Positions 2,746-20,503 are shown, numbered from the stretch's first letter. The stretch is 64,000 nucleotides of DNA from Burkholderiaceae bacterium (GCA_004298905.1 SCTK01000018.1:5870-69869); one strand, 5' to 3'. A program made the numbers and translations. Notes: generated by a model from the letters alone, not told the origin.

Positions 2746-4839
2746 ATGAGCGGTAACAAGAAAACGAGTGTAAAAGCAGCAGCAGGTTACGTCGGCAAGT
2801 ATCGCGAAATTCTTTTGGCGGTGGCGTTTTTTCTGGTGTTCGATCTGGCGGTACTGGTTCTGAATTTTTATATCTCGTTCCAGATTTCCGAAGATGCGAA
2901 TGCCATCAACCTGGCTGGGCGTCAGCGTATGTTGTCGCAGCGCATGGCCAAGGCGGCATATGCGATCGACGCTGATTTCTCGGCCGGGGTGTCGACGGGG
3001 GAGAGTGTCGAAGAGTTGAAAAAAACCGTCTCCCTGTTCGATCAAACCTTGCAAGCCTTTGTGCAGGGCGGTGAGGTGACCGGGGCGGGTGGCAATCCCG
3101 TCGTCCTGCAGGCGGTTGAGGCGGCCGGTGGCCGCAAGATCATGGATCAGGCGGTACCGCTGTGGGCTGTGTACCGGGAAGCGCTGCTGCCCTTGCAGCG
3201 CGAGCAACTCAGCGCGGCGGAGATTGCGACGGCGGTTGCCGTGGCACGCGCCAATAACGTCAAGCTGCTCGGCTTGATGAACGATCTGACCAACCATCTG
3301 GAACGCGTGGCAGCGGCCAAGGCCGATCGTTTGCGGCTGGTGCAAACGGCCGGGATTTTGCTGGCGCTGGTCAACTTCGCCTTCATTCTGTTCAAATTCA
3401 TCCGCAAGTTGCGCGAGAATGACCGCGCCATCGAAGCGGCGCAAAACGAGACGGCCGAGATTCTCGGTACCGTGAGAGAGGGGCTGTTTTTGCTTGATGC
3501 ACGCTACAAGATCGGCTCGCAGTATTCGGCCTCGCTGAGCCCGATTCTCGGTCAGCCCATCGTGGCCGGTGAGAACTTTCTCGATGTGCTGAAAAAAATG
3601 GTCCCCACGACCGTCTATGAGACTGCGCGCGATTACATCGAATTGCTGCTCGGCGACCGGGTCAAGGAAAGTCTGGTGCAGGAACTCAATCCACTGATTG
3701 CCGTTGAAGTCCTGGTCTCACTGGACCCGGTGCACCCGGCTTCACGTTTTCTGACGTTTCAATTCAACCGCGTCATGCAGGGCGGCGTGGTGCGGCACTT
3801 GCTGGTGACCGTATCGGATGTGACCGCGCAGGTTGAACTGGAAAGCAAACTTGCGCAGGCGCGTCAAAAGGCACGCACCGAAGTGGCGGTGATGCTAGAT
3901 GTCCTCAAGGTCAGTCCGGAAGTGTTGCGCCGCTTTCTGACCGATACGGAAAAAGCGCTGCTGGAAATCAATGATCAGTTGCGTAGCGTCGGTTCGGGGC
4001 GCCCCGACTATCACCGCCTGATCGACAATGTCTTTCGCAAGATCCATACGATCAAGGGCGATGCAGCGACGCTGGGGCTGGAAATGTTTGAAGAACTGGC
4101 ACACGAGTTTGAATCCCTGTTGCGCCCCTTGCGCGACAACAAGTTGAACGGCGGCCAGGTGAGTGGCGAAGATCTGCTGCGCGTGCCGATGCCGCTGGAT
4201 GAAATGCTGGAACGAGTCACCATGGTGCGCGACATGCTCGCGCGCTTGAGCAGTTATCAGCAGGGCAGCGATGCGGTGGGGAATGCGCGCGAATTCACCG
4301 AACAGTTGCACGCGCTGACACAACGCATCGCCACCGATCATGGCAAGCAAGTCACCTTGCAGGCAGATCTCGATTTGCTCGACGCTCTGCCGCAGGCCAT
4401 GCGCCAGGAGGTCAAGGACATTGTTGTGCAACTGTTGCGCAATGCCGTCGTGCACGGCATCGAACCCGGCATGCAGCGGCGTGCGCTGTCCAAGAACGAA
4501 ACCGGCGCCATTGCCCTGCACCTGCGTAATCAGGACGACGGCGAACTGGAGCTGGTGCTGCGCGATGATGGCCGTGGCATCTCGCCGTATCAGGTGCGCA
4601 CCGCGTTGATCGCATCCGGCCGCTATACCGAGAAGCAATTGAACGAGCTGGATGATCGCAGTTTGTTGTTGAAGATTTTTGAACCGGGTTTTTCAACGGC
4701 AGCGGGACTGTCGCGGCATGCCGGGCAGGGAGTGGGGATGGATGTCGTGCATCAGAAAATTCTGCAACTGGGTGCGCGCTTGCGGGTGGCAACCCGTCCC
4801 AATAGCTACACACAGTTTTCCATCGTGTTCAGTGCGTAG
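2746..4839 (+). CDS. Transmembrane sensor kinase: PilJ/NarX-type periplasmic sensor module fused to a CheA-type HPt + HATPase core, with no CheW-like domain
   Basis: TM1 is ILLAVAFFLVFDLAVLVLNFYISF. AINLAGRQRMLSQRMAK matches the PF13675/P-box-like signature. TM2 is around ILLALVNFAFILFKFI. HPt motif FRKIHTIKGDAATLG is present. The CheA-like ATPase boxes are LLRNAVVHGIE (N), DDGRGI (G1), FEPGFST (F) and GQGVGMDVV (G2). The protein ends about 30 aa after G2. Confidence 0.75.
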   Translation: MSGNKKTSVKAAAGYVGKYREILLAVAFFLVFDLAVLVLNFYISFQISEDANAINLAGRQRMLSQRMAKAAYAIDADFSAGVSTGESVEELKKTVSLFDQTLQAFVQGGEVTGAGGNPVVLQAVEAAGGRKIMDQAVPLWAVYREALLPLQREQLSAAEIATAVAVARANNVKLLGLMNDLTNHLERVAAAKADRLRLVQTAGILLALVNFAFILFKFIRKLRENDRAIEAAQNETAEILGTVREGLFLLDARYKIGSQYSASLSPILGQPIVAGENFLDVLKKMVPTTVYETARDYIELLLGDRVKESLVQELNPLIAVEVLVSLDPVHPASRFLTFQFNRVMQGGVVRHLLVTVSDVTAQVELESKLAQARQKARTEVAVMLDVLKVSPEVLRRFLTDTEKALLEINDQLRSVGSGRPDYHRLIDNVFRKIHTIKGDAATLGLEMFEELAHEFESLLRPLRDNKLNGGQVSGEDLLRVPMPLDEMLERVTMVRDMLARLSSYQQGSDAVGNAREFTEQLHALTQRIATDHGKQVTLQADLDLLDALPQAMRQEVKDIVVQLLRNAVVHGIEPGMQRRALSKNETGAIALHLRNQDDGELELVLRDDGRGISPYQVRTALIASGRYTEKQLNELDDRSLLLKIFEPGFSTAAGLSRHAGQGVGMDVVHQKILQLGARLRVATRPNSYTQFSIVFSA

Positions 4840-10288: not shown

Positions 10289-11629
10289 CTACAAACTTAG
10301 CGAATATTTCCTGTCAGCGCGTTTGTGCAGTGGATCAAATCCCAGCTCCCTTGTCTCTCCGTTCCAGTCAAAAGGGAGACCGGTATAAGGGTTACACCAC
10401 TCAGTTGGGAGTTTCTTGTTTGCTTCTGAAACCCCAGTGTTCATCAATCTGATTTTCCAGCTCGCACCAACCAGCCGGTTCATTGCATACAGATCAAATA
10501 CGCGATCGATGTAGTCCACATAACTGGTGGACGCCATCCATGCCGATATTCTGCCGATAGGGTTGTACGCCCAGGAAATATCTGGTTGAGCCATGGATTC
10601 AAGCCGGTGTGTCAACGCCGCGCGCTCCTGTACCCACTCATGCGGTTTTAAGCGGGAAACCGCCATGTATTCTGACACCCACTTAGCCGTTTGATTTTCA
10701 AAATCCTGGCGGTTATAGACCAAGCGAGTCAGGAATGACAAAAGATAATCAAGGCGCTGCTCAGGCAGAGATGATAGTGCCTTGTTGTTACCAAGAATTT
10801 CACCAACTTTGCGTATGAAATCGTTTTCATAGCGGATGGCAGGGCTCATGTCGAGTGAAGATTCTGAAAAGATCAAGGCACGTGCGATCAGCGCCTCATA
10901 GCGCCGCAAATCTTCTAGACGCATATCGGCAATAAATTCCCCCAGCAGGCGATAATTCTTGTGCAGTTGCACGGTAGCAATCATTTTCATAATCAGGGAT
11001 CTGGATTGCTCGAATACAAGCCGATTGAAACGAATGTCCATTTCCAGCGCTTGCAGCGGCTCTTCGCGCTTGCCGCCAATATATTGGGCGGTGATTTCTG
11101 TCAAAAAAAGATTCTGCGCCTGAGTGTGCAGTGCGATATTCGGTAAGTGTGGACCGGCCACAGCTTGTTCTTCGAATGACTGAAATTTCTGCAGCGTTCG
11201 ATAGCGACCCAGCAAATGCGCATTTGCTGTCAAGGTTGCACGCAATTTCTTCTGATCGGCTGCGCGAATTTCCTGCAGACATCGTTGCGCCAGAGGGTTG
11301 CAGAATTTTTCGATGTTGATGTGCGATTCAGGAATTGGCTCAACAGGGTCTGTTGTTCCAAATCCGAGTGCATTGGCTTGATTGTATTTGTCCAGACGCC
11401 TTCTGCCAGCATCGATTGGGTCGGAATTTTTGTCGGCATCGAACCCGAGCATATACAGATAAGCATTGTCCCGATCTTGTAGCGTGTTGACGAAAGGCTT
11501 GGCGAGTTCTACTGCTGCCGGACTCGGCTTGCGATCAAACAGGTTGATCAGAATCACGAGAAGAATGCAGGCAACGGCTATGAGCAGCAACCATTTGACG
11601 ATCTTCCAGGTGCGTCTCAACAACATCAT
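10289..11629 (-). CDS. Hypothetical membrane-anchored protein, 446 aa, no family recognised
   Basis: A long uninterrupted ORF in a low-GC segment (hand count 42 % in 10741-10800). The N-terminal TM anchor is IVKWLLLIAVACILLVILINLF. The rest is hydrophilic and helix-rich. It is the only substantial ORF here. Confidence 0.7.
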   Translation of the reverse strand: MMLLRRTWKIVKWLLLIAVACILLVILINLFDRKPSPAAVELAKPFVNTLQDRDNAYLYMLGFDADKNSDPIDAGRRRLDKYNQANALGFGTTDPVEPIPESHINIEKFCNPLAQRCLQEIRAADQKKLRATLTANAHLLGRYRTLQKFQSFEEQAVAGPHLPNIALHTQAQNLFLTEITAQYIGGKREEPLQALEMDIRFNRLVFEQSRSLIMKMIATVQLHKNYRLLGEFIADMRLEDLRRYEALIARALIFSESSLDMSPAIRYENDFIRKVGEILGNNKALSSLPEQRLDYLLSFLTRLVYNRQDFENQTAKWVSEYMAVSRLKPHEWVQERAALTHRLESMAQPDISWAYNPIGRISAWMASTSYVDYIDRVFDLYAMNRLVGASWKIRLMNTGVSEANKKLPTEWCNPYTGLPFDWNGETRELGFDPLHKRADRKYSLSL

Positions 11630-11887: not shown

Positions 11888-12559
11888 CTAGCTTGGCAGG
11901 ATGCGCTGCAACCATTGGCCGATGTCGTTCACCTCATCCGCGCACACCGAATGCTGCATCGGGTACTCGTGCCATTCCACACGATAGCCCATCTCTTCGA
12001 GCCGAGCCCTGGTCTGCTGTCCCCATGCGAACTGCACGATTGTGTCCTGCGTGCCATGCGCCATGAAAATTGGCGTGTCCTGATTGGCACTGTGGCGTTC
12101 GCTGGCCACGGCTTCGTGCACAGGTAGATAGGTAGAGAGCGCGAGCAGTCCGGCCAGTTTGTGCGGGTAGCGCAGGCCGGTGTGCAGGGTGATGGCGCCG
12201 CCTTGCGAGAACCCGGCCAGGACGATGCGTTCGCTCGGGATGCCGCGTTCATTTTCGCGCTGGATCAATTGTTCAATCGCTGCTTGCGAAGCGCGCACGC
12301 CGGCTTCATCTTCGCGCTGCGCAAAATCGGGCGTGCGGATGTCGTACCAGGCGCGCATCGGATAACCGCTGTTGATGGTGACCGGGATCACCGGCGCATG
12401 CGGGAAGACAAAGCGCAGCGGCAAGATTTTTTCCAGATCGAGTTCACGCACGATGGGCACGAAGTCGTGGCCGTCGGCGCCCAGTCCATGCAGCCAGATG
12501 ATGCTGGCTTGTGGGGTGGCGCGGCTTTGCAGTTCAACACATTCGAGTTCGGTGGTCAT
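11888..12559 (-). CDS. Carboxylesterase / phospholipase family alpha/beta hydrolase
   Basis: IIWLHGLGADGHDF, nucleophile elbow GFSQGG and FMAHGTQD are present, with the catalytic H near WHEYPMQHSV. The ATG at 12559 overlaps the mog stop (ATGA). Confidence 0.8.
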   Translation of the reverse strand: MTTELECVELQSRATPQASIIWLHGLGADGHDFVPIVRELDLEKILPLRFVFPHAPVIPVTINSGYPMRAWYDIRTPDFAQREDEAGVRASQAAIEQLIQRENERGIPSERIVLAGFSQGGAITLHTGLRYPHKLAGLLALSTYLPVHEAVASERHSANQDTPIFMAHGTQDTIVQFAWGQQTRARLEEMGYRVEWHEYPMQHSVCADEVNDIGQWLQRILPS

Positions 12560-13149
12560 GATTTTTTGAGGGCAGATTTGGGGCGGAATGCTTTGCAAAC
12601 CGCTTCATGTGTTTCGATATAAGGTCCGCCGATCAGATCGACGCAGTAGGGAATGGCGGCGAAAATTCCCGAAGCCAACACTGTGCCCTGCGCATCTTTC
12701 AAACCTTCCAGCGTTTCGGCAATCGCCTTGGGCTGGCCGGGCAGGTTGACGATCAGACTCTGTTTGCGGATCACGCCGACCTGCCGGGACAGTATAGCCG
12801 TCGGTACAAAGCGCAGACTGATCTGGCGCATCTGTTCGCCAAAGCCGGGCAACTCGCGGTCGGCAATCGCCAGCGTCGCTTCGGGCGTGACATCGCGCGG
12901 CGCCGGGCCGGTGCCGCCGGTGGTGAACACCAGGTGGCACTGTTGCACATCGACCAGTTCGATCAAGGTCGCTTCGATCTGCGCCTGTTCATCGGGAATC
13001 AGCCGCGTGACGGCTTCCCAGGGGTTGCGCAGGGCGCGGTTCAGCCAGTCCTGCAGACCGGGGATGCCCTTGTCTTCATACACGCCGCTGCTGGCGCGGT
13101 CGCTGATGGAGATCAGGCCGATGCGCAAGGTGTCGAGTGCGTCACTCAT
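12556..13149 (-). CDS. mog: Molybdopterin adenylyltransferase
   Basis: Collinear with E. coli Mog: LRIGLISISDRASSGVYEDKGIP, TTGGTGPAPRDVTPEAT and PGFGEQMRQISLRFVPTAILSRQ. Confidence 0.9.
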   Translation of the reverse strand: MSDALDTLRIGLISISDRASSGVYEDKGIPGLQDWLNRALRNPWEAVTRLIPDEQAQIEATLIELVDVQQCHLVFTTGGTGPAPRDVTPEATLAIADRELPGFGEQMRQISLRFVPTAILSRQVGVIRKQSLIVNLPGQPKAIAETLEGLKDAQGTVLASGIFAAIPYCVDLIGGPYIETHEAVCKAFRPKSALKKS

Positions 13150-13684: not shown

Positions 13685-13748
13685 CGTGATTCGCTGAATT
13701 GAAGTGTGGGCGGTATGATAGCGCGCTTGTCGAATGGATTCCCTACCT

Positions 13749-15101
13749 ATGTCCACACCCCGTTTCAGCTTTACTCAAGACGCCCTCAAAACCCTCGCCG
13801 CCGAGGTTTTGCAGCAGGCCCGTGCGCTGGGCGCGTCCGATGCCGCGTGCGAATTTTCCGAAGGCCATGCGCTGTCGGTCACCGTGCGCCAGGGCAGTGT
13901 CGAAACCATCGAACACAACCGCGACAAGGGCATGGGCGTGACGGTCTATATCGGCCAGCGGCGCGGCCATGCCAGCAGCTCCGATTTTTCTTCTCGCGCA
14001 CTGCACGATGCGGTGAAAGCGGCTTACGACATTGCCCGCTTCACGGCCGAAGATGATTGCGCCGGGCTGCCCGATGCCGAGCAACTGGAAACCGCGCCGC
14101 CGGATCTCGATCTGTATCACCCCTGGGCGCTGGATGCCGATCATGCCGCGCAACTGGCGCAGCGCGCCGAAGCGGCGGCATTGGCCACCAGCCCGCTGAT
14201 TCGCAATTCCGAAGGCGCGTCAGTGTCCGCCAATCACGGCCAGTTTGTGATGGCCAACACGCGCGGATTTTCCGGTGGCTATCCTTACTCACGCCACTAC
14301 CTTTCCTGCGCGCCGATTGCCGGGCAAGGCAAACACATGCAGCGCGACGATTGGTATAGCAGCGCGCGCGATCACCGCCATATGGCCACGCCCGAAGCAG
14401 TGGGGCGCTACGCCGCCGAGCGCGCCCTGGCACGCCTGCATGCGCGCTCGCTCAAAACCCGGCAAGTGCCGGTGCTGTTCGATGCGCCGCTGGCGGTGGG
14501 ACTGCTCGGCAGTTTCACGCAAGCAGTCAGCGGCGGCGCCCTGTATCGTAAATCCAGTTTCCTGCTCGATTCGCTGGGGCAGGCTGTGATGGCCGAACAT
14601 CTGACGCTGAAAGAAGATCCCACGCTGCGCGCTGCGCTGGGTAGCACACCGTTCGATGAAGAAGGCGTCAAAGTGGCGCCACGCGATGTGGTGCATGACG
14701 GCGTCTTGCAAGGCTATTTCCTGTCTTGCTATTCCGCCCGCAAGCTTGGCATGCAAACGACGGGCAATGCAGGTGGCTCGCACAATCTCTTCCTCACCAG
14801 CCGCCACACGCAGGCGCAGGACAACCTGCCTGCGATGCTGAGAAAACTCGGCACCGGTTTGTTCGTCACCGAATTGATGGGCCAGGGTGTCAATACCGTC
14901 ACCGGCGATTATTCGCGCGGCGCGTTTGGCTACTGGGTGGAAGGCGGCGAAATTTGCTACCCGGTGCAGGAAATCACGATTGCCGGGAATCTGAAACAGA
15001 TGCTGCACGACATCACCGCCATCGGCAGCGACGTGATCACACGCGGGACGAAAAATACCGGCTCCATATTGCTTTCCAATATGACGGTGGCAGGCGCATA
15101 G
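13749..15101 (+). CDS. pmbA: Metalloprotease PmbA (TldE)
   Basis: About 450 aa of the PmbA/TldD family, with a C-terminal GDYSRGAFGYWVEGGEI motif. It is divergent from yjgA as in E. coli. An alternative start lies at 13734. Confidence 0.85.
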   Translation: MSTPRFSFTQDALKTLAAEVLQQARALGASDAACEFSEGHALSVTVRQGSVETIEHNRDKGMGVTVYIGQRRGHASSSDFSSRALHDAVKAAYDIARFTAEDDCAGLPDAEQLETAPPDLDLYHPWALDADHAAQLAQRAEAAALATSPLIRNSEGASVSANHGQFVMANTRGFSGGYPYSRHYLSCAPIAGQGKHMQRDDWYSSARDHRHMATPEAVGRYAAERALARLHARSLKTRQVPVLFDAPLAVGLLGSFTQAVSGGALYRKSSFLLDSLGQAVMAEHLTLKEDPTLRAALGSTPFDEEGVKVAPRDVVHDGVLQGYFLSCYSARKLGMQTTGNAGGSHNLFLTSRHTQAQDNLPAMLRKLGTGLFVTELMGQGVNTVTGDYSRGAFGYWVEGGEICYPVQEITIAGNLKQMLHDITAIGSDVITRGTKNTGSILLSNMTVAGA

Positions 15102-15130
15102 AAAGTTGCGCCATCAGTTGTTTGAAAACA

Positions 15131-15577
15131 ATGCGGCTTTACAATTCTCCAAAACAACCGACACTCCAAGTGCCCATAGAACAATACAAAAAAACCAGCC
15201 GATTATTCAACTTGCTATCGGCATCCTTCGCCTTCTTTCTGTGGGGAGGATGGGCCTATTACCTCAATGGATCTTCTCAGGAAAATACCGGACTGATTTC
15301 CGGGATCGCTCAGGGCACGGCCAGCTTTTTTATCACCTTATGCATGGTTCACGTCGTAACATTTCTGTACCACCACCTATCGCCAAATAAATGGCGTATA
15401 TGGCTACCTGCATTGCTTACCGTTTCCGTGACGGGGAGCGGCCTGGTCTGTATGCACTATTGGCTCGGTACGCCTCACATTTTTTATACGATATCGCCAG
15501 CACTTACTGTGGCATTTATATTTTGTTTATTCACCACTCAAAAATTACGGCAGGTTAATAAAGAAAAAGGAGATTGA
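15131..15577 (+). CDS. Small four-TM membrane protein of unknown function (first gene of the low-GC lipid cassette)
   Basis: ATG at 15131, 148 aa. Hydrophobic helices include FAFFLWGGWAYYL, ASFFITLCMVHVVTFLY and WLPALLTVSVTGSGLVCM. The track ORF 14726..15577 is an upstream extension overlapping pmbA. Confidence 0.6.
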   Translation: MRLYNSPKQPTLQVPIEQYKKTSRLFNLLSASFAFFLWGGWAYYLNGSSQENTGLISGIAQGTASFFITLCMVHVVTFLYHHLSPNKWRIWLPALLTVSVTGSGLVCMHYWLGTPHIFYTISPALTVAFIFCLFTTQKLRQVNKEKGD

Positions 15578-15581
15578 GGCT

Positions 15582-16244
15582 GTGGCTAATATTGAAAATA
15601 GACGTCCATTGAAAGTACGTGACGCGAACCTGGCAAAATTAATCGCACGTACCTTAAGCCAGAAAAACATCACCCCGAACCAGATATCTGTAATGAGCAT
15701 ATTTTTTGCGGCATTGGCAGGTGGCTTTTTGTATTTGACGCCGCGTGTTGCAGGTATCCAAGCTTGGGCATTTCCTTTACTCGCTGCTGCCTGTATTCAA
15801 CTGCGCTTGCTATGTAATTTATTTGATGGAATGGTGGCTGTTGAAGGTGGCAAAAAGACGCCTGCAGGTGAGTTGTTCAACGATATTCCAGACCGCATTG
15901 CGGACCCCATCATTTTGATCGCCGCGGGTTACGCCGTTGCGGTTGTGAGTTGGGGTGGAGCCTTGGGATGGTGCGCAGCACTGCTTGCCGTGATGACGGC
16001 TTATGTACGCACACTTGGATCAAGTGTTGGGGCGCCTGCCAATTTTCAGGGGCCCATGGCAAAACAACACCGTATGGCAGTCGTCACGTTTGCCTGCCTA
16101 GTTTGTGCCGTTGAGGCCGCATTTTTTCAACAAAGTTATGCCATGTTATTTGCGCTCTCGATTGTTGTTGTGGGTTGCATGATTACTCTCTACCGTCGAG
16201 TGATGACGATCTATCACTACCTGGGAGCCCACAAAAATGTTTAA
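15582..16244 (+). CDS. CDP-alcohol phosphatidyltransferase family protein (YnbA-like)
   Basis: The family motif D-G-x2-A-x8-G-x3-D-x3-D is seen as DGMVAVEGGKKTPAGELFNDIPDRIAD. At about 220 aa and all-membrane it has the size and architecture of E. coli YnbA. A GTG start lies 5 nt after the previous stop. Confidence 0.8.
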   Translation: MANIENRRPLKVRDANLAKLIARTLSQKNITPNQISVMSIFFAALAGGFLYLTPRVAGIQAWAFPLLAAACIQLRLLCNLFDGMVAVEGGKKTPAGELFNDIPDRIADPIILIAAGYAVAVVSWGGALGWCAALLAVMTAYVRTLGSSVGAPANFQGPMAKQHRMAVVTFACLVCAVEAAFFQQSYAMLFALSIVVVGCMITLYRRVMTIYHYLGAHKNV

Positions 16245-17169
16245 TGTTCCACAGAACTCCCTATATGGGATGTTGGTTATCTTCGGGCTTTTGATTGCCG
16301 CCACTTGTATTCGTCTATTGCTGGCCGGAAAGAATCCCAATATAGATTACACAGAGTTGCGCCAACGTATCCAGTCATGGTGGTGGATGATTGCTTTACT
16401 GTTTATTGCACTGTTGGTGAGTAAATTGACGGCCATCGTATTTTTTGGTTTTTTGAGTTTTCTGGCACTTAAAGAATTTCTTTCGATTGTTGGCACCCGG
16501 CAGGCTGATAGGAGAGTTGTGTTCTGGGCTTATCTATCGATCCCGCTTCAATACTATTGGGTGAGCATTGGCTGGTATGGGATGTTCATCATTTTTATCC
16601 CTGTTTATGTTTTTCTTTTCTTGCCGATGCGCATGATCTTGATTGGCGAAACGAAGGGGTTTATTCATTCGGCGGGCATACTGCACTGGTCAGTGATGCT
16701 GACGGTTTTTTGCATCAGCCATCTCGCCTATTTACTAACGTTACCTGAAATCAATGCTGCTGCAGGCAGTATTGGTCTCGTACTATTCCTGCTTTTCATG
16801 ACACAGTTTAATGATGTCAGCCAATACATCTGGGGAAAGCTGTTAGGAAAACATAAGATCATTCCAAAAGTCAGTCCGAATAAAACCTGGGAAGGTTTTT
16901 TGGGAGGATTGTTCACCATCACTGTGTGCTCAGGATTTTTGGCGCCGGTGTTGACACCGCTGCCTTTTAAATATGGACTGATTGCGGGTGTGTTGATCAG
17001 TGCAAGTGGTTTTGTCGGAGATGTAGTGATTTCTTCGGTGAAGCGCGATTTGCAGATCAAGGACACGGGAAATTTTATCCCCGGACATGGCGGAATCCTG
17101 GATCGACTGGATAGTTTGATTTATACGGCACCCCTGTTTTTTCATTTTCTTTACTACGTGGCCTATTAA
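16237..17169 (+). CDS. Phosphatidate cytidylyltransferase paralogue (CdsA family, YnbB-like)
   Basis: CdsA signatures SPNKTWEGFLGG and KRDLQIKDTGNFIPGHGGILDRLDS are present. FLALKEF and FNDVSQYIWGK resemble my recollection of E. coli YnbB rather than CdsA. The gene has an 8-nt overlap with the upstream gene. Confidence 0.8.
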   Translation: MFNVPQNSLYGMLVIFGLLIAATCIRLLLAGKNPNIDYTELRQRIQSWWWMIALLFIALLVSKLTAIVFFGFLSFLALKEFLSIVGTRQADRRVVFWAYLSIPLQYYWVSIGWYGMFIIFIPVYVFLFLPMRMILIGETKGFIHSAGILHWSVMLTVFCISHLAYLLTLPEINAAAGSIGLVLFLLFMTQFNDVSQYIWGKLLGKHKIIPKVSPNKTWEGFLGGLFTITVCSGFLAPVLTPLPFKYGLIAGVLISASGFVGDVVISSVKRDLQIKDTGNFIPGHGGILDRLDSLIYTAPLFFHFLYYVAY

Positions 17170-17817
17170 ATGATGCGCATCATCATTAAGGTACTATTTT
17201 TTGCGGTGATCATTCGCCCCATCACATTAATCGTATTGGGTTTGAATGTCAGAGGAAAGAATAAATTACCCATGAATGGCCCAGCCGTATTGGCAGCCAA
17301 TCATAATAGCCACCTCGATACGATGGTTCTCATGAGCCTCTACCCCTTGTCGAAAATAAATAAAGTACGGCCGGTGGCAGCAGCAGATTATTTTTTGAGT
17401 AATCGTTATCTAGCGTGGTTCTCATTGCATTGCATTGGCATTATTCCGTTAGATCGCAGTGGCAATGCCGATAAAAAAGACTTGTTCAGTGCGTGTCACC
17501 AAGCGCTGGATAATGGAGACATTTTGATCGTCTTTCCAGAAGGTAGCCGTGGCGATCCTGAGAAATTGAGCAAAATAAAATCCGGACTGTTTTATCTCAC
17601 GAAAGATCACACCAACGTACCGGTGATCCCTGTGGTCATGCATGGACTTGGTCGGGCATTGCCAAGAGGGGAAGCGCTATTTGTACCCTTCAACTGCGAC
17701 GTTATTGTTGGCGATCCATTGCCGCGCGCGCTTGTGTCGAAAGATTTGGTGGACAATATATCTACAGCGTTTAATACGCTATCCACAGAGTTTTTGACAC
17801 GTGGTGCCGATGCTTAG
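17170..17817 (+). CDS. 1-acyl-sn-glycerol-3-phosphate (lysophospholipid) acyltransferase family protein
   Basis: PlsC motifs NHNSHLDT (H-x4-D) and VFPEGSRG are present. The ATG directly abuts the preceding TAA. Confidence 0.8.
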   Translation: MMRIIIKVLFFAVIIRPITLIVLGLNVRGKNKLPMNGPAVLAANHNSHLDTMVLMSLYPLSKINKVRPVAAADYFLSNRYLAWFSLHCIGIIPLDRSGNADKKDLFSACHQALDNGDILIVFPEGSRGDPEKLSKIKSGLFYLTKDHTNVPVIPVVMHGLGRALPRGEALFVPFNCDVIVGDPLPRALVSKDLVDNISTAFNTLSTEFLTRGADA

Positions 17818-17966
17818 CCTCGTTAGCCGCCACAGGAATCAAATTGCCCCAGTTGTCCTGTTTCTCGTTGTCTTTTTCAGCAACGTTGTTCTAGTCTTCG
17901 TCGATGATATGTCGGGCTACGCCTGATTGGGGAAAATTGGCTGGTAACTCCCCACCCCCTCATAAT

Positions 17967-19403
17967 TCAACCCAGCTTCTTGCGCCAGCGCGCAATCGCC
18001 GCCCGCACTTGTTCCGGCGCGGTGCCGCCGATGTGGTTACGGCTGGCGAGCGAGCCTTCGAGGGTGAGGACGGCGAACACATCGTCGCCAATCAGGGGCG
18101 AGAATTTTTGCAATTCGGCCAGCGGCAGGTCGGCGAGGTCGCAGGATTTCTGCTCGCAAATGCGCACGGCATGGGCGACGATTTCGTGGGCATCGCGGAA
18201 CGGCAAGCCTTTCTTCACCAGATAATCGGCCAGATCGGTGGCGGTGGCAAAGCCTTGCAGGGCGGCGGCGCGCATGGCTTCCGGCTTGACGCGGATGCCG
18301 GGCACCATGTCGGCGAAAATGCGCAGGGTGTCGATCAGCGTGTCGGCCGTGTCGAACAGCGGTTCCTTGTCTTCCTGATTGTCCTTGTTGTACGCCAGCG
18401 GCTGCCCTTTCATCAGGGTCAGCAAGCCGATCAGGTGACCGTTGACGCGGCCGGTCTTGCCGCGCGCGAGTTCGGGCACGTCGGGGTTTTTCTTTTGCGG
18501 CATGATCGAGCTGCCGGTGCAGAAGCGGTCGGCCAGGTCGATGAAGCCAACGCGCGGGCTCATCCACAGAATCAATTCTTCCGACAGCCGCGAGACATGC
18601 GTCATGACGAGCGCGGCGGCGGCACAGAATTCAATCGCGAAGTCGCGGTCGGACACGGCGTCGAGCGAGTTTTCGCACACGCCGTCAAAGCCCAGCGTGC
18701 GTGCCACACGTTCGCGGTCGATGGCGTAACTGGTCCCCGCCAGCGCGGCGGCGCCCAGCGGCAGGCGGTTGATCCGCTTGCGCGCATCCTGCAGGCGTTC
18801 GGCATCGCGGCCGAACATTTCCACATAGGCGAGCAGATGGTGGCCGAAGGTCACGGGTTGCGCCACCTGCAAATGCGTGAAGCCGGGCATGACGGTGGCG
18901 GCGTGCTGTTCAGCCAAATCGAGCAGCGCGGTTTGCAGTGCGGCCAGCAGGGGGACGAGGGTATCGATCTGCGCACGCAGCCAGAGCCGGATGTCAGTGG
19001 CCACTTGATCGTTGCGCGAACGGGCGGTGTGCAAGCGTTTGCCGGCATCGCCCACCAGCTCGGTCAGCCGCTTCTCGATGTTCAGGTGCACGTCTTCCAG
19101 ATCGAGTTGCCATTCAAAGGTGCCGGCTTCGATGCTGGCGAGAATTTTTGCCATGCCATCGCAAATTGCCTGATAATCGGCAGCGGACAGCAGGCCGACA
19201 TGGCGCAACATTTCCGCATGCGCTAGAGAGCCTTGAATGTCGTAAGGCGCCAGCCGCTTGTCGAAAAACACCGAGGCGGTGTAGCGTTTGACCAGATCGG
19301 AGACCGGTTCGGAAAAACGCGCCGACCAGGCTGCGCTTTTATTGGCCAGCGGATCAGCCGATGGTGCAGACGATGTTGCAGAGGATGCAGGTTTTTCGCT
19401 CAT
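17967..19403 (-). CDS. argH: Argininosuccinate lyase
   Basis: The fumarate-lyase signature [12 protein letters not shown] and ArgH N-terminal [20 protein letters not shown] are present. ATG at 19403. Confidence 0.92.
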
Positions 19404-19444
19404 GGATGGCTCGATAGAATTCTTCACCCGATTATAAAGCAGTG

Positions 19445-20503
19445 ATGACGCCAACCGACCCCATCACGCACAAGATCGCTTCCGCGAACCCTGCCGCCCT
19501 GCAGCAGGGCGTGTTGCCCGACGGCTGCAATGTCGGCGTGATTTTGCGCGTCTTGCTGATGATCAACGCCACGGTGGCACTGGCGCTGGCGGTGCGCATC
19601 GACAGCTGGCAACAGTTTTCCAATGACTTTGCCGCCGTTGCGGTGATCGTGGAACCGGTGGTGCTGGCTTCCCTGTTGTGCGTTTGCACGTTGCGCCCAC
19701 TGGTGCAGCGCTGGCCCAGCGTTTGGCAGACCCTGCTGGGTTGCGCGATTCCTGCGTTGCTGACCTGGTTGTTGTTGCAGGCATTCATCCCCATGGGTGT
19801 TGTGGCCACGGGCAAGGGACTTTGGCTGCCCGTGGTGTTGGCGGCCTTGATGGCCTTGCTGCTGTTGCATTACTTTGAGTTGCGCGCACGGGCCTATTCC
19901 CCGGCGCTGGATGAGGCGCGCATGCAAGCCTTGCAGGCGCGCATCCGGCCGCATTTTCTATTTAACAGCCTGAATGCCGTGCTGGGGGTGGTGCGCGAAG
20001 ACCCGCGCCGGGCGGAGGCTATTCTGGAAGATTTGAGCGATCTGTTTCGCGCCCTGCTGCGCGATGCGCGCCAGCAGGTTTCGGTCAATCAGGAAGTCGG
20101 CTTGTGCCGGCAGTATCTGGCGATCGAGCAATTGCGCTTGGGTGATCGTTTGCAGGTGCGCTGGGATGTGGATGTAGCGGCGGAACCGGCCGGTATTCCC
20201 GCTTTGCTGCTTCAACCTTTGGTCGAAAATGCCGTTCATCACGGTGTGGAGCAACGCAGCCAGCCGAGCAAAATCGAGGTGGCCGTGCACAAGCGCGGCG
20301 ACCGCTTGCTGATCCGCGTGGCCAATCCCTTGCCGGAAAGCGAGGCGAATCCGGTGGCGAAGCGCGAACGCGGTAACCAGATGGCGCTGGACAATATCCG
20401 GCAACGTCTGACAGTTTTGTATGACATTGAAGCGCAGCTGGAATCGAATCGAACTGCAACGCAGTTTGTGGTCGAGGTGAATTTGCCCTACCGGACGATA
20501 TGA
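19445..20503 (+). CDS. algZ: LytS/AlgZ(FimS)-type sensor histidine kinase
   Basis: Several N-terminal TM helices are followed by the His_kinase (PF06580) motif [18 protein letters not shown] and the ATPase part [14 protein letters not shown]. It is divergent from argH as in Pseudomonas. Confidence 0.75.

Follow-up and report, generated by a model that had tools for sequence, protein, structure and literature searches.

A 64,000-nucleotide (nt) stretch of DNA from a Burkholderiaceae bacterium, called the window here and used in full for the numbering of all positions, carries at 15131-17817 a cassette of four intact open reading frames (ORFs). They lie on the same strand, between pmbA and the convergent argH. 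Their predicted products are a small four-helix membrane protein (gene 1), a CDP-alcohol phosphatidyltransferase of the YnbA type (gene 2), a CDP-diacylglycerol (CDP-DAG) synthase paralogue of the YnbB type (gene 3) and a small acyltransferase of the PlsC type (gene 4). The cassette is probably a horizontally acquired, compact accessory glycerophospholipid module of the ynb/arc1 family that entered the pmbA/argH junction as a single 2.9-kb block. The close packing described in the first-pass annotation, which was made from the sequence alone, was reproduced at every junction when the ORFs and the sequence were checked. A 4-nt gap separates genes 1 and 2 (TGA GGCT GTG), genes 2 and 3 overlap by 8 nt (ATGTTTAA), and the TAA of gene 3 is followed at once by the ATG of gene 4. 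The start codon of gene 2 is GTG, eight bases downstream of an intact Shine-Dalgarno sequence, AAGGAG.

Features of the four-gene cassette and its flanks, with positions counted along the window
Feature	Position	Strand	Remarks
pmbA, left flank, native	13734..15101	+	455-aa ORF, 61.7 % GC
Low-GC insert, pmbA stop to argH stop	15102..17966	+	2,865 bp, 45.9 % GC
Gene 1, small four-helix membrane protein, unnamed family	15131..15577	+	148 aa
Gene 2, YnbA-type CDP-alcohol phosphatidyltransferase	15582..16244	+	220 aa, PF01066
Catalytic motif region, gene 2 residues 79-108 (NLFDGMVAVEGGKKTPAGELFNDIPDRIAD)	15816..15905	+	regular expression and alignment
Gene 3, YnbB-type CDP-DAG synthase paralogue	16237..17169	+	310 aa, PF01148
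Gene 4, small PlsC/LPLAT-type acyltransferase	17170..17817	+	215 aa, PF01553
Weak terminator-like hairpin after gene 4	17866..17885	+	consensus scan only
argH, right flank, native, convergent	17967..19454	-	495-aa ORF, 61.9 % GC

The base composition of the cassette was compared with that of the flanks and of the whole genome. Its GC content is 45.8 %, against 58.4 % for the 2.48-Mb genome and the higher values of pmbA and argH given in the table, and is the second-lowest among 4,838 segments of equal length genome-wide. GC at the third codon position (GC3) ranges from 0.46 to 0.50 in the four genes, against a genome mean of 0.68 +/- 0.07. Among 1,636 long ORFs these values rank in the lowest 1-2 %, so the comparison with the whole genome that had been proposed earlier marks all four genes as clear low outliers. 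The hand counts of GC given at that time were also reproduced at 16261-16320 (43.3 %) and 17221-17280 (35.0 %), and the flanking segment 14401-14460 came out at 75 % where about 70 % had been claimed. Low GC as a general trait of membrane-protein genes was considered and ruled out. The genes for the 33 most hydrophobic proteins of this genome average 0.74 in GC3, with 0.58 as the lowest value, and the alternative of GC-poor membrane-protein genes is therefore refuted.

The left flank is native: pmbA orthologues of 54-68 % identity were found in 25 of 25 relatives, and the gene sequence est-mog-darP(yjgA)-pmbA is kept in relatives from across the order. In a relative from the same family and another genus (G005), argH, which is 80 % identical to that of the window, directly abuts pmbA. 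The two stop codons lie 3-4 nt apart there against 2,865 bp here, and 15102-17966 therefore behaves as an insertion into the pmbA/argH junction. G005 is distant (PmbA 65 % identical) and serves as an analogue of the empty site, not as a strict before/after pair. At the borders of the insert, no noteworthy direct or inverted repeats and no integrase or recombinase gene were found. A close homologue of gene 2 is present in only 1 of 40 relatives, with 48 % identity, another gene order and another site, and a homologue occurs in 14 of 400 genomes sampled evenly over the phylum. The nearest database matches reach only 65 % identity; they belong to an unclassified Pseudomonadota metagenome-assembled genome, Planctomycetales, Desulfobulbaceae and Methylococcaceae. 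The GC of the cassette equals that of the flanks in Planctomycetota, Desulfobulbaceae (46 %) and Thiobacillus, but is well below it in the window and in the closest relative (L011), which occupies a different site, at gyrA/ubiG. Thus the low GC marks a recent arrival and is not a property of the genes. The compositional outliers, the empty junction in G005 and the rarity among relatives support the earlier claim that the cassette was probably acquired horizontally.

A recent arrival might also be a silent or decaying passenger without function in its host. The unameliorated GC fits such a passenger, no promoter was detected, and a copy in Bosea described below is possibly decaying. However, the four ORFs are intact, the catalytic signatures, the translational coupling and the Shine-Dalgarno sequence of gene 2 are kept, and the closest homologues share the order and spacing of the genes. 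We consider a functionless passenger quite improbable.

The two genes at the downstream end of the cassette bear out the family assignments made at first. Gene 3 matches PF01148 with 237 bits and carries the full CDP-DAG synthase signature (SSVKRDLQIKDTGNFIPGHGGILDRLD, at residue 266), tested as S-x-[LIVMF]-K-R-x4-K-D-...-H-G-G-x2-D-R-x-D. Its product is 43 % identical to Escherichia coli YnbB over the full length (E 7e-83) and only 35 % identical to the housekeeping CdsA of the genome, over the C-terminal 173 aa. It scores below the equivalog cut-off for housekeeping CdsA (101.7 against 385), as expected of a paralogue. In a tree of YnbB proteins it falls in a clade of 26 rows (support 99/98) that mixes six phyla and includes Planctomycetota, Bacteroidota, Campylobacterota, Verrucomicrobiota, Thiobacillus and Vibrionaceae, with housekeeping CdsA far outside. 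The identity to YnbB and this cassette-linked clade bear out the proposal of a second-type, YnbB-like synthase, and the mixing of phyla in a well-supported clade indicates frequent transfer between them. Gene 4 likewise agrees with the H-x4-D acyltransferase first proposed. It matches PF01553 with 84.6 bits and has the HX4D motif HNSHLD at residue 45 and FPEGSR at residue 122. The best curated match is the acyltransferase domain of the Aas-type acyl-ACP-phospholipid O-acyltransferase. The TIGR00530 score of 64 bits is below the cut-off of 103, and the substrate is therefore not assignable.

These enzymes belong to the same domain families as the housekeeping enzymes of phospholipid synthesis, and the cassette could in principle supply the organism's own cdsA, pgsA and plsC. 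The inventory of paralogues refutes this. Elsewhere the genome encodes PgsA (TIGR00560, 184 bits against a cut-off of 109), PssA (TIGR00473, 124 against 107), a CdsA of the housekeeping type, which lies on another contig, a divergent fourth member of PF01066 and three more PlsC-type acyltransferases. The canonical PgsA, PssA and CdsA and the three PlsC-type genes stand at native GC, and 39 of 40 relatives lack the cassette. A housekeeping role has next to no probability, and the cassette is therefore accessory. The first-pass annotation had singled out a lack of other cdsA, pgsA and plsC genes as the finding that would speak against its view, and copies of all three are present.

For gene 2, the earlier description needs one correction. 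Its PF01066 score is marginal (24.2 bits against the Pfam cut-off of 22), and the motif DGx2Ax8Gx3Dx3D, earlier said to be present, is absent. A regular expression for the canonical form, D-G-x2-A-R-x8-G-x3-D-x3-D, gave no match in the gene 2 product. The corresponding residues read N79-LF-D82-G-MV-A-V-EGGKKTPA-G96-ELF-N100-D-IP-D104-RIA-D108, in which the first and third motif aspartates are asparagines (N79, N100) and the arginine after the alanine is V87. Two alignments, with 17 and 28 homologues and with E. coli YnbA included, show no variation at N79, D82, G83, A86, G96, N100, D104 and D108. In a profile alignment, N79, D82, N100 and D104 fall on D68, D71, D89 and D93 of Mycobacterium tuberculosis PgsA1. 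In that enzyme the ligands of Mg-1 are D68, D71 and D89 and those of Mg-2 are D89 and D93, the last of which is presumed to serve as the base (PMC6506517). Thus, by this alignment to the PgsA1 metal ligands, two of the four ligands are changed throughout the gene 2 family.

Profile and fold comparisons were used to place the transferase. The best curated profiles are those of archaetidylinositol-phosphate synthase (NF040950, 72.2 bits, cut-off 180) and phosphatidylinositol-phosphate (PIP) synthase (NF045883, 40.9 bits, cut-off 170). The curated-profile search gave no PgsA, PssA or Pcs match, and the PgsA profiles TIGR00560 and NF008090 did not match at E <= 0.01. The best solved relative by sequence is Archaeoglobus AF2299. 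The AlphaFold model of gene 2 has a pLDDT of 87, and the top Foldseek matches are PIP synthases (6WM5, 6H59, 5D91; TM 0.72-0.79, E 1e-5). The top 16 matches are all PIP synthases or AF2299, with AF2299 and DIPPS ranking after the PIP synthases. The phosphatidylglycerophosphate (PGP) synthase of Staphylococcus aureus (E 0.02, TM about 0.5) and phosphatidylserine synthase are far weaker matches. In PgsA1 the phosphate of inositol-phosphate is held by R94, K135, R155 and R195 (PMC6506517). R105, R143, R164 and R206 of gene 2 align to these residues, and all four are invariant in the window-type family. Since this arginine pocket is retained, the acceptor presumably bears a phosphate or some comparable anionic group.

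A phylogeny of the transferase, as proposed in the first-pass annotation, was built with PgsA, PssA, a third paralogue, PIP synthases and AF2299, and it shows two groupings only. The window-type proteins form one clade (support 85), and E. coli YnbA groups with the arc1-type protein in a separate clade (support 97). Terminal branches of the tree are saturated, at up to 10 changes per column, and its deep forks are unresolved, and for this reason the placement was taken from profile scores and fold comparison.

The curated profiles, the structural matches, all headed by PIP synthases, and the conserved phosphate pocket would together be consistent with a bacterial pathway to PIP or other inositol lipids. 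However, the scores are far below the equivalog cut-offs and the motif differs at two aspartates. PF01658, the family of inositol-1-phosphate synthase, is absent from this genome, which is estimated to be 100 % complete, and the same search detected it in 6 control genomes. E. coli, itself a carrier of YnbA, was likewise without a PF01658 match in the control search. With no inositol-1-phosphate synthase in a complete genome, inositol-phosphate is therefore unlikely as the acceptor, and an inositol-lipid pathway is very improbable.

Glycerol-3-phosphate or another sugar or polyol phosphate is a possible acceptor and our best guess. As a sub-case of the favoured explanation, the acceptor would be glycerol-3-phosphate itself, and the cassette a second, conditional PlsC-CdsA-PgsA line that refills phosphatidylglycerol or cardiolipin precursors, for instance when phospholipases have done damage. 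Apart from glycerol-3-phosphate, no abundant phospho-alcohol is certain to be present in the cell; the phosphate-binding arginines are kept, and E. coli YnbA has a weak PgsA profile match (31 bits). Four products of the Pseudomonas arc1 cluster, moreover, have been described as homologous to enzymes of phosphatidylglycerol synthesis (Ting et al., PMC8926400). Set against these points are the missing PgsA-profile match of gene 2 and the poor agreement with the solved PGP synthase when compared with PIP synthases. The genome already has a canonical PgsA, and a duplicate of its reaction would not call for a dedicated active-site variant that is kept from phylum to phylum. This PGP route is conceivable but doubtful.

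Gene 1 had been described as an unclassified protein with four transmembrane helices, and this description stands. The AlphaFold2 model is a four-helix membrane bundle with a pLDDT of 91. No Pfam, NCBIfam or Protein Data Bank (PDB) match was found for the protein, Foldseek gave no match better than E 1.9 for its model, and searches with the family (17 members; Pfam at E <= 1, and a profile search of PDB sequences) returned nothing meaningful. Homologues 52 % and 40 % identical occur in Planctomycetota and Desulfobulbaceae, and the next gene downstream of them is invariably that for the transferase. About 500 homologues, all labelled hypothetical or transmembrane, were seen in a large protein collection, many of them from Rhizobium and Ensifer. 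The invariant residues are A34, F35, G39, W41, Q61, G62, S65, H109, T114 and T120.

The linkage of gene 1 to gene 2 extends to loci with a reduced gene content. In three Acinetobacter loci (L022, L026 and L029; about 3040-4140) the small protein and the transferase form a pair, and neither a YnbB nor a PlsC gene lies within 3.5 kb of it. Two metagenomic proteins are in-frame fusions, one of the small protein with the transferase (P0243, 324 aa; 43 % identity, E 5e-17) and the other of the transferase with YnbB (P0334, 403 aa; 54 %, E 4e-79); each was seen in a single cluster at 50 % identity and may be a sequencing artefact. The upstream position, the Acinetobacter pairs and the fusions thus connect the small protein with the transferase, and the latter with YnbB. 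A convergent dusA-like gene comes after the pair in L022. An apparent fusion of YnbB with the small protein in Bosea sp. UC22_33 (chromosome, L086, 2169-4148; 442-aa ORF) was rejected. The YnbB frame runs into that of the small protein, and its sequence leaves the CdsA consensus immediately behind HGGxxDRL, a sign of a frameshift; the transferase has an internal stop. Either the Bosea cassette is a decaying copy or it contains sequencing errors.

To assess how widely the arrangement is conserved, as the first-pass annotation had suggested, one genome per species was scanned. The module of YnbA-type transferase, YnbB-type synthase and PlsC-type acyltransferase was confirmed at no fewer than 588 loci, that is, in at least 588 species-level genomes of many phyla. 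Carriers include Planctomycetota, Acidobacteriota, Verrucomicrobiota, Bdellovibrionota, Campylobacterota, Bacteroidota and Chloroflexota and, among the Pseudomonadota, Vibrio, Photobacterium, Acinetobacter, Halomonas, Pseudomonas and Rhizobium. A HMMER search of 1.84 billion representatives gave 432 clusters at E <= 1e-30. In 87 related loci, a YnbB-type gene lies within 3.5 kb of the transferase in 79 and a PlsC-type gene in 80, and a gene 1 homologue is found in 28. The arrangement is thus recurrent but patchy, with the small protein confined to a subset. Three layouts were observed: small protein-transferase-YnbB-PlsC, as in the window; transferase-PlsC-YnbB, in Acidobacteriota, Verrucomicrobiota, some Pseudomonas and G005; and the rhizobial PlsC-YnbB-small protein-transferase. 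The flanks vary between genomes, and the closest homologues keep the order and spacing of the window.

When all ORFs of 84 loci were clustered, no further family appeared in more than about 6 of them. A ubiG-HAD pair beside L011 was considered as part of the module and rejected as ordinary neighbourhood. The profiles of the anti-phage defence collection PADLOC gave no match, and no paper describing the compact form was found in the literature under the annotation names of the three enzymes. The singularity implied for the four-gene arrangement does not hold, given the number of loci and the relation to the named arc1 cluster. The earlier interpretation is largely right, but it overstated how singular the cassette is. 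The compact variant is new; the ynb/arc1 family is already known, widely distributed and biochemically unsolved. Evidently the cassette has moved between phyla as one unit.

Pseudomonas sp. PLMAX carries an arc1-type six-gene cluster on its chromosome (L127) and a transferase-PlsC-YnbB cassette on the 949-kb plasmid pPLMAXa (L092). One strain can therefore have both forms, and the compact one can reside on a plasmid. Directly downstream of the arc1-type cluster lies a 460-aa transposase-like ORF (L127, 8409-9791).

A scheme can be proposed for the cassette as an accessory module. The PlsC-type enzyme of gene 4 would acylate lysophosphatidate, or re-acylate a lysophospholipid, from acyl-ACP or acyl-CoA to give phosphatidate. 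The YnbB-type enzyme of gene 3, with its intact signature and its identity to E. coli YnbB, would then convert phosphatidate and CTP into CDP-DAG. The transferase of gene 2 would pass the phosphatidyl group to a small phosphate-bearing acceptor, yielding an anionic phosphatidyl-X-phosphate lipid. X may be glycerol-3-phosphate or another sugar or polyol phosphate, and is presumably not inositol made de novo. The product would possibly be dephosphorylated by a host phosphatase. The four-helix protein of gene 1 may act as a dedicated membrane partner of the transferase, either as a subunit or in handling the product. By analogy with the arc1 phenotype, the role is probably conditional membrane remodelling or repair and not bulk lipid synthesis. 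The self-contained pathway for a non-canonical lipid suggested in the first-pass annotation is, on this basis, a reasonable reading.

Several points weigh against this scheme. We know of no lipid product for any member of the family, so every catalytic step, like the nature of X and the role, has been deduced from family membership, intact motifs and gene linkage. The two asparagines at positions that are metal ligands in PgsA1 (D68, D89) could mean a different chemistry or weak activity. The cassette has no phosphatase, hydrolase or methyltransferase such as ynbABCD and arc1 contain, and its end product may therefore differ from theirs. The phenotype of arc1 may not transfer to a distant compact variant, and the orthology of L127 to PA2541-36 was judged from gene content and the N-terminus encoded by a published primer, not from the PAO1 sequence. 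No promoter-like site was found in the 29-nt leader between pmbA and gene 1, and the promoter and terminator scan, including the hairpin after gene 4, gave nothing above shuffled expectation. With no such site in the leader, transcription of the cassette by read-through from pmbA is possible.

The changed active site also bears on a different chemistry, in which the phosphate of a sugar-1-phosphate would act as nucleophile and a pyrophosphate-linked glycolipid anchor (sugar-PP-diacylglycerol) would be formed, like the first intermediate of MPIase. E. coli YnbB makes CDP-DAG in vitro and supports the MPIase precursor (GlcNAc-PP-DAG), but cannot replace CdsA for bulk lipids (PMC6362211, PMC7018664). 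Replacement of two aspartates by asparagine would presumably lower the repulsion of an anionic nucleophile, and the arginine pocket is conserved. The published model, however, gives the formation of GlcNAc-PP-DAG to CdsA and YnbB themselves, and the paper presenting it makes no mention of YnbA. No glycosyltransferase is linked to the cassette in the 87 loci, and the chemistry is without precedent in the CDP-alcohol phosphotransferase fold. Such an anchor is improbable. A broader conjecture, and an equally long shot, is that the YnbA-type transferases with Asn/Asp/Asn/Asp form an unrecognised class within this fold with different transfer chemistry, making for instance an X-PP-diacylglycerol anchor of the MPIase type or a head group new to bacteria, with the four-helix protein as an obligatory subunit or a product flippase. 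If this were true, the four-gene cassette would be the minimal portable unit for installing such a lipid in any bacterium.

The favoured explanation, a compact accessory glycerophospholipid module, has consequences beyond this locus. The ynb/arc1 genes are one of the few widespread bacterial gene sets for phospholipid synthesis without a known product. The ynbABCD genes of E. coli have been orphans for decades, and arc1 of Pseudomonas has a phenotype of protection against lipases with no known chemistry. Among the forms examined, the window cassette is the smallest self-contained one, with three enzymes and a membrane partner in 2.7 kb. Its compactness and its transfer as a unit therefore make it well suited to heterologous expression followed by lipidomics, and it offers a way to learn both the identity of the lipid and the chemistry of the Asn/Asp/Asn/Asp form of the four-aspartate active site. 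The genes are recognisable and the cassette is not unique to this genome, so the surprise is moderate; the value lies in an open question made testable.

Other segments of unusual composition were seen in the window and beyond it. A second GC-poor islet (about 47-50 % GC) lies at 10289-11629 on the minus strand. Its single 446-aa ORF has a hydrophobic segment at the N-terminus and is without a Pfam match. This ORF is next to an esterase gene (11888-12598) and appears to be one more foreign gene. Further islands of 45-49 % GC lie outside the window (C6:107500-109500, C6:162500-168500 and C4:164000-166500). With islands of GC as low as that of the cassette, the genome thus holds several recently acquired segments. 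One contig outside the window (C20, 88,156 bp) has 70.1 % GC, against 53-65 % for every other contig of the assembly, and could represent contamination or a foreign replicon, although the contamination reported for the assembly is 0.06 %.

The nearest known system in E. coli is the ynbA-ynbB-ynbC-ynbD operon of strain K-12 (b1408-b1411). As in the window, a YnbA-type transferase is adjacent and coupled to a YnbB-type synthase, ynbAB are accessory to the essential cdsA and pgsA, and YnbA shares with gene 2 the Asn/Asp/Asn/Asp motif and the ranking of curated profiles. The likeness to the ynbA-ynbB pair noted earlier holds well for gene 3 and, in motif and profile pattern, for gene 2, but the gene 2 product, from a separate subfamily, shares only 22 % identity with YnbA. 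Where E. coli has YnbC (hydrolase/methyltransferase) and YnbD (phosphatase), the window has the PlsC-type acyltransferase, and the E. coli operon is without the small four-helix partner. Searches by tblastn with E. coli YnbC and YnbD gave no match in the cassette or anywhere in the genome, and YnbC-like and YnbD/PAP2-type genes were found in only 2 of the 87 related loci. The acyltransferase does stand in place of ynbC/ynbD here, as had been proposed; arc1 has an acyltransferase together with ynbC/ynbD-like genes.

The arc1A-F genes of Pseudomonas aeruginosa (antagonism resistance cluster 1, PA2541-PA2536) are induced through Gac/Rsm, and five of the six products are tied to phospholipid synthesis (Ting et al., PMC8926400). 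The cluster protects against type VI attack by Burkholderia (PMC8926400), and a 2025 study found that arc1A contributes to resistance against lipase effectors (PMC12663445). The arc1-type cluster of Pseudomonas sp. PLMAX encodes a YnbA-type protein with Asn/Asp/Asn/Asp, a YnbC-like protein, a PAP2 plus dual-specificity phosphatase, a small hypothetical protein, a PlsC-type acyltransferase and a YnbB-type synthase. Compared with these, the window proteins are 41 % identical for YnbB (E 2e-73), 35 % for the acyltransferase (E 2e-25) and 28 % for the transferase (E 4e-9). Both systems have all three enzyme types and are accessory to the core lipid genes. The arc1 cluster has in addition the YnbC-like protein, the PAP2 plus dual-specificity phosphatase and a different small hypothetical protein, to which gene 1 is not homologous (hhalign probability 0.3 %), and its genes stand in another order. 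For Gac/Rsm control and for resistance to type VI lipase effectors, Pseudomonas is the only known case.

PIP synthases (M. tuberculosis PgsA1, 6H59; Renibacterium salmoninarum, 5D91) and Archaeoglobus AF2299 and IPCT-DIPPS share with gene 2 the six-helix CDP-alcohol phosphotransferase fold and the phosphate pocket. Gene 2 differs from the PIP synthases in the asparagines at the first and third motif positions, in scores far below the family cut-offs, in its operon partners and in the lack of an inositol-phosphate supply. The MPIase route resembles the window in its YnbB-type enzyme, which is poor at bulk lipids and serves a specialised diacylglycerol-linked product. Neither a YnbA-type transferase nor an acyltransferase has been reported to take part in that route, and the cassette, for its part, has no glycan-building genes linked to it. 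By its gene content and sequence similarity, the window cassette is thus classed as a compact relative of ynb and arc1, which has kept all three enzymes of the biosynthesis, has neither the phosphatase nor the hydrolase/methyltransferase, and has added a membrane partner of its own.

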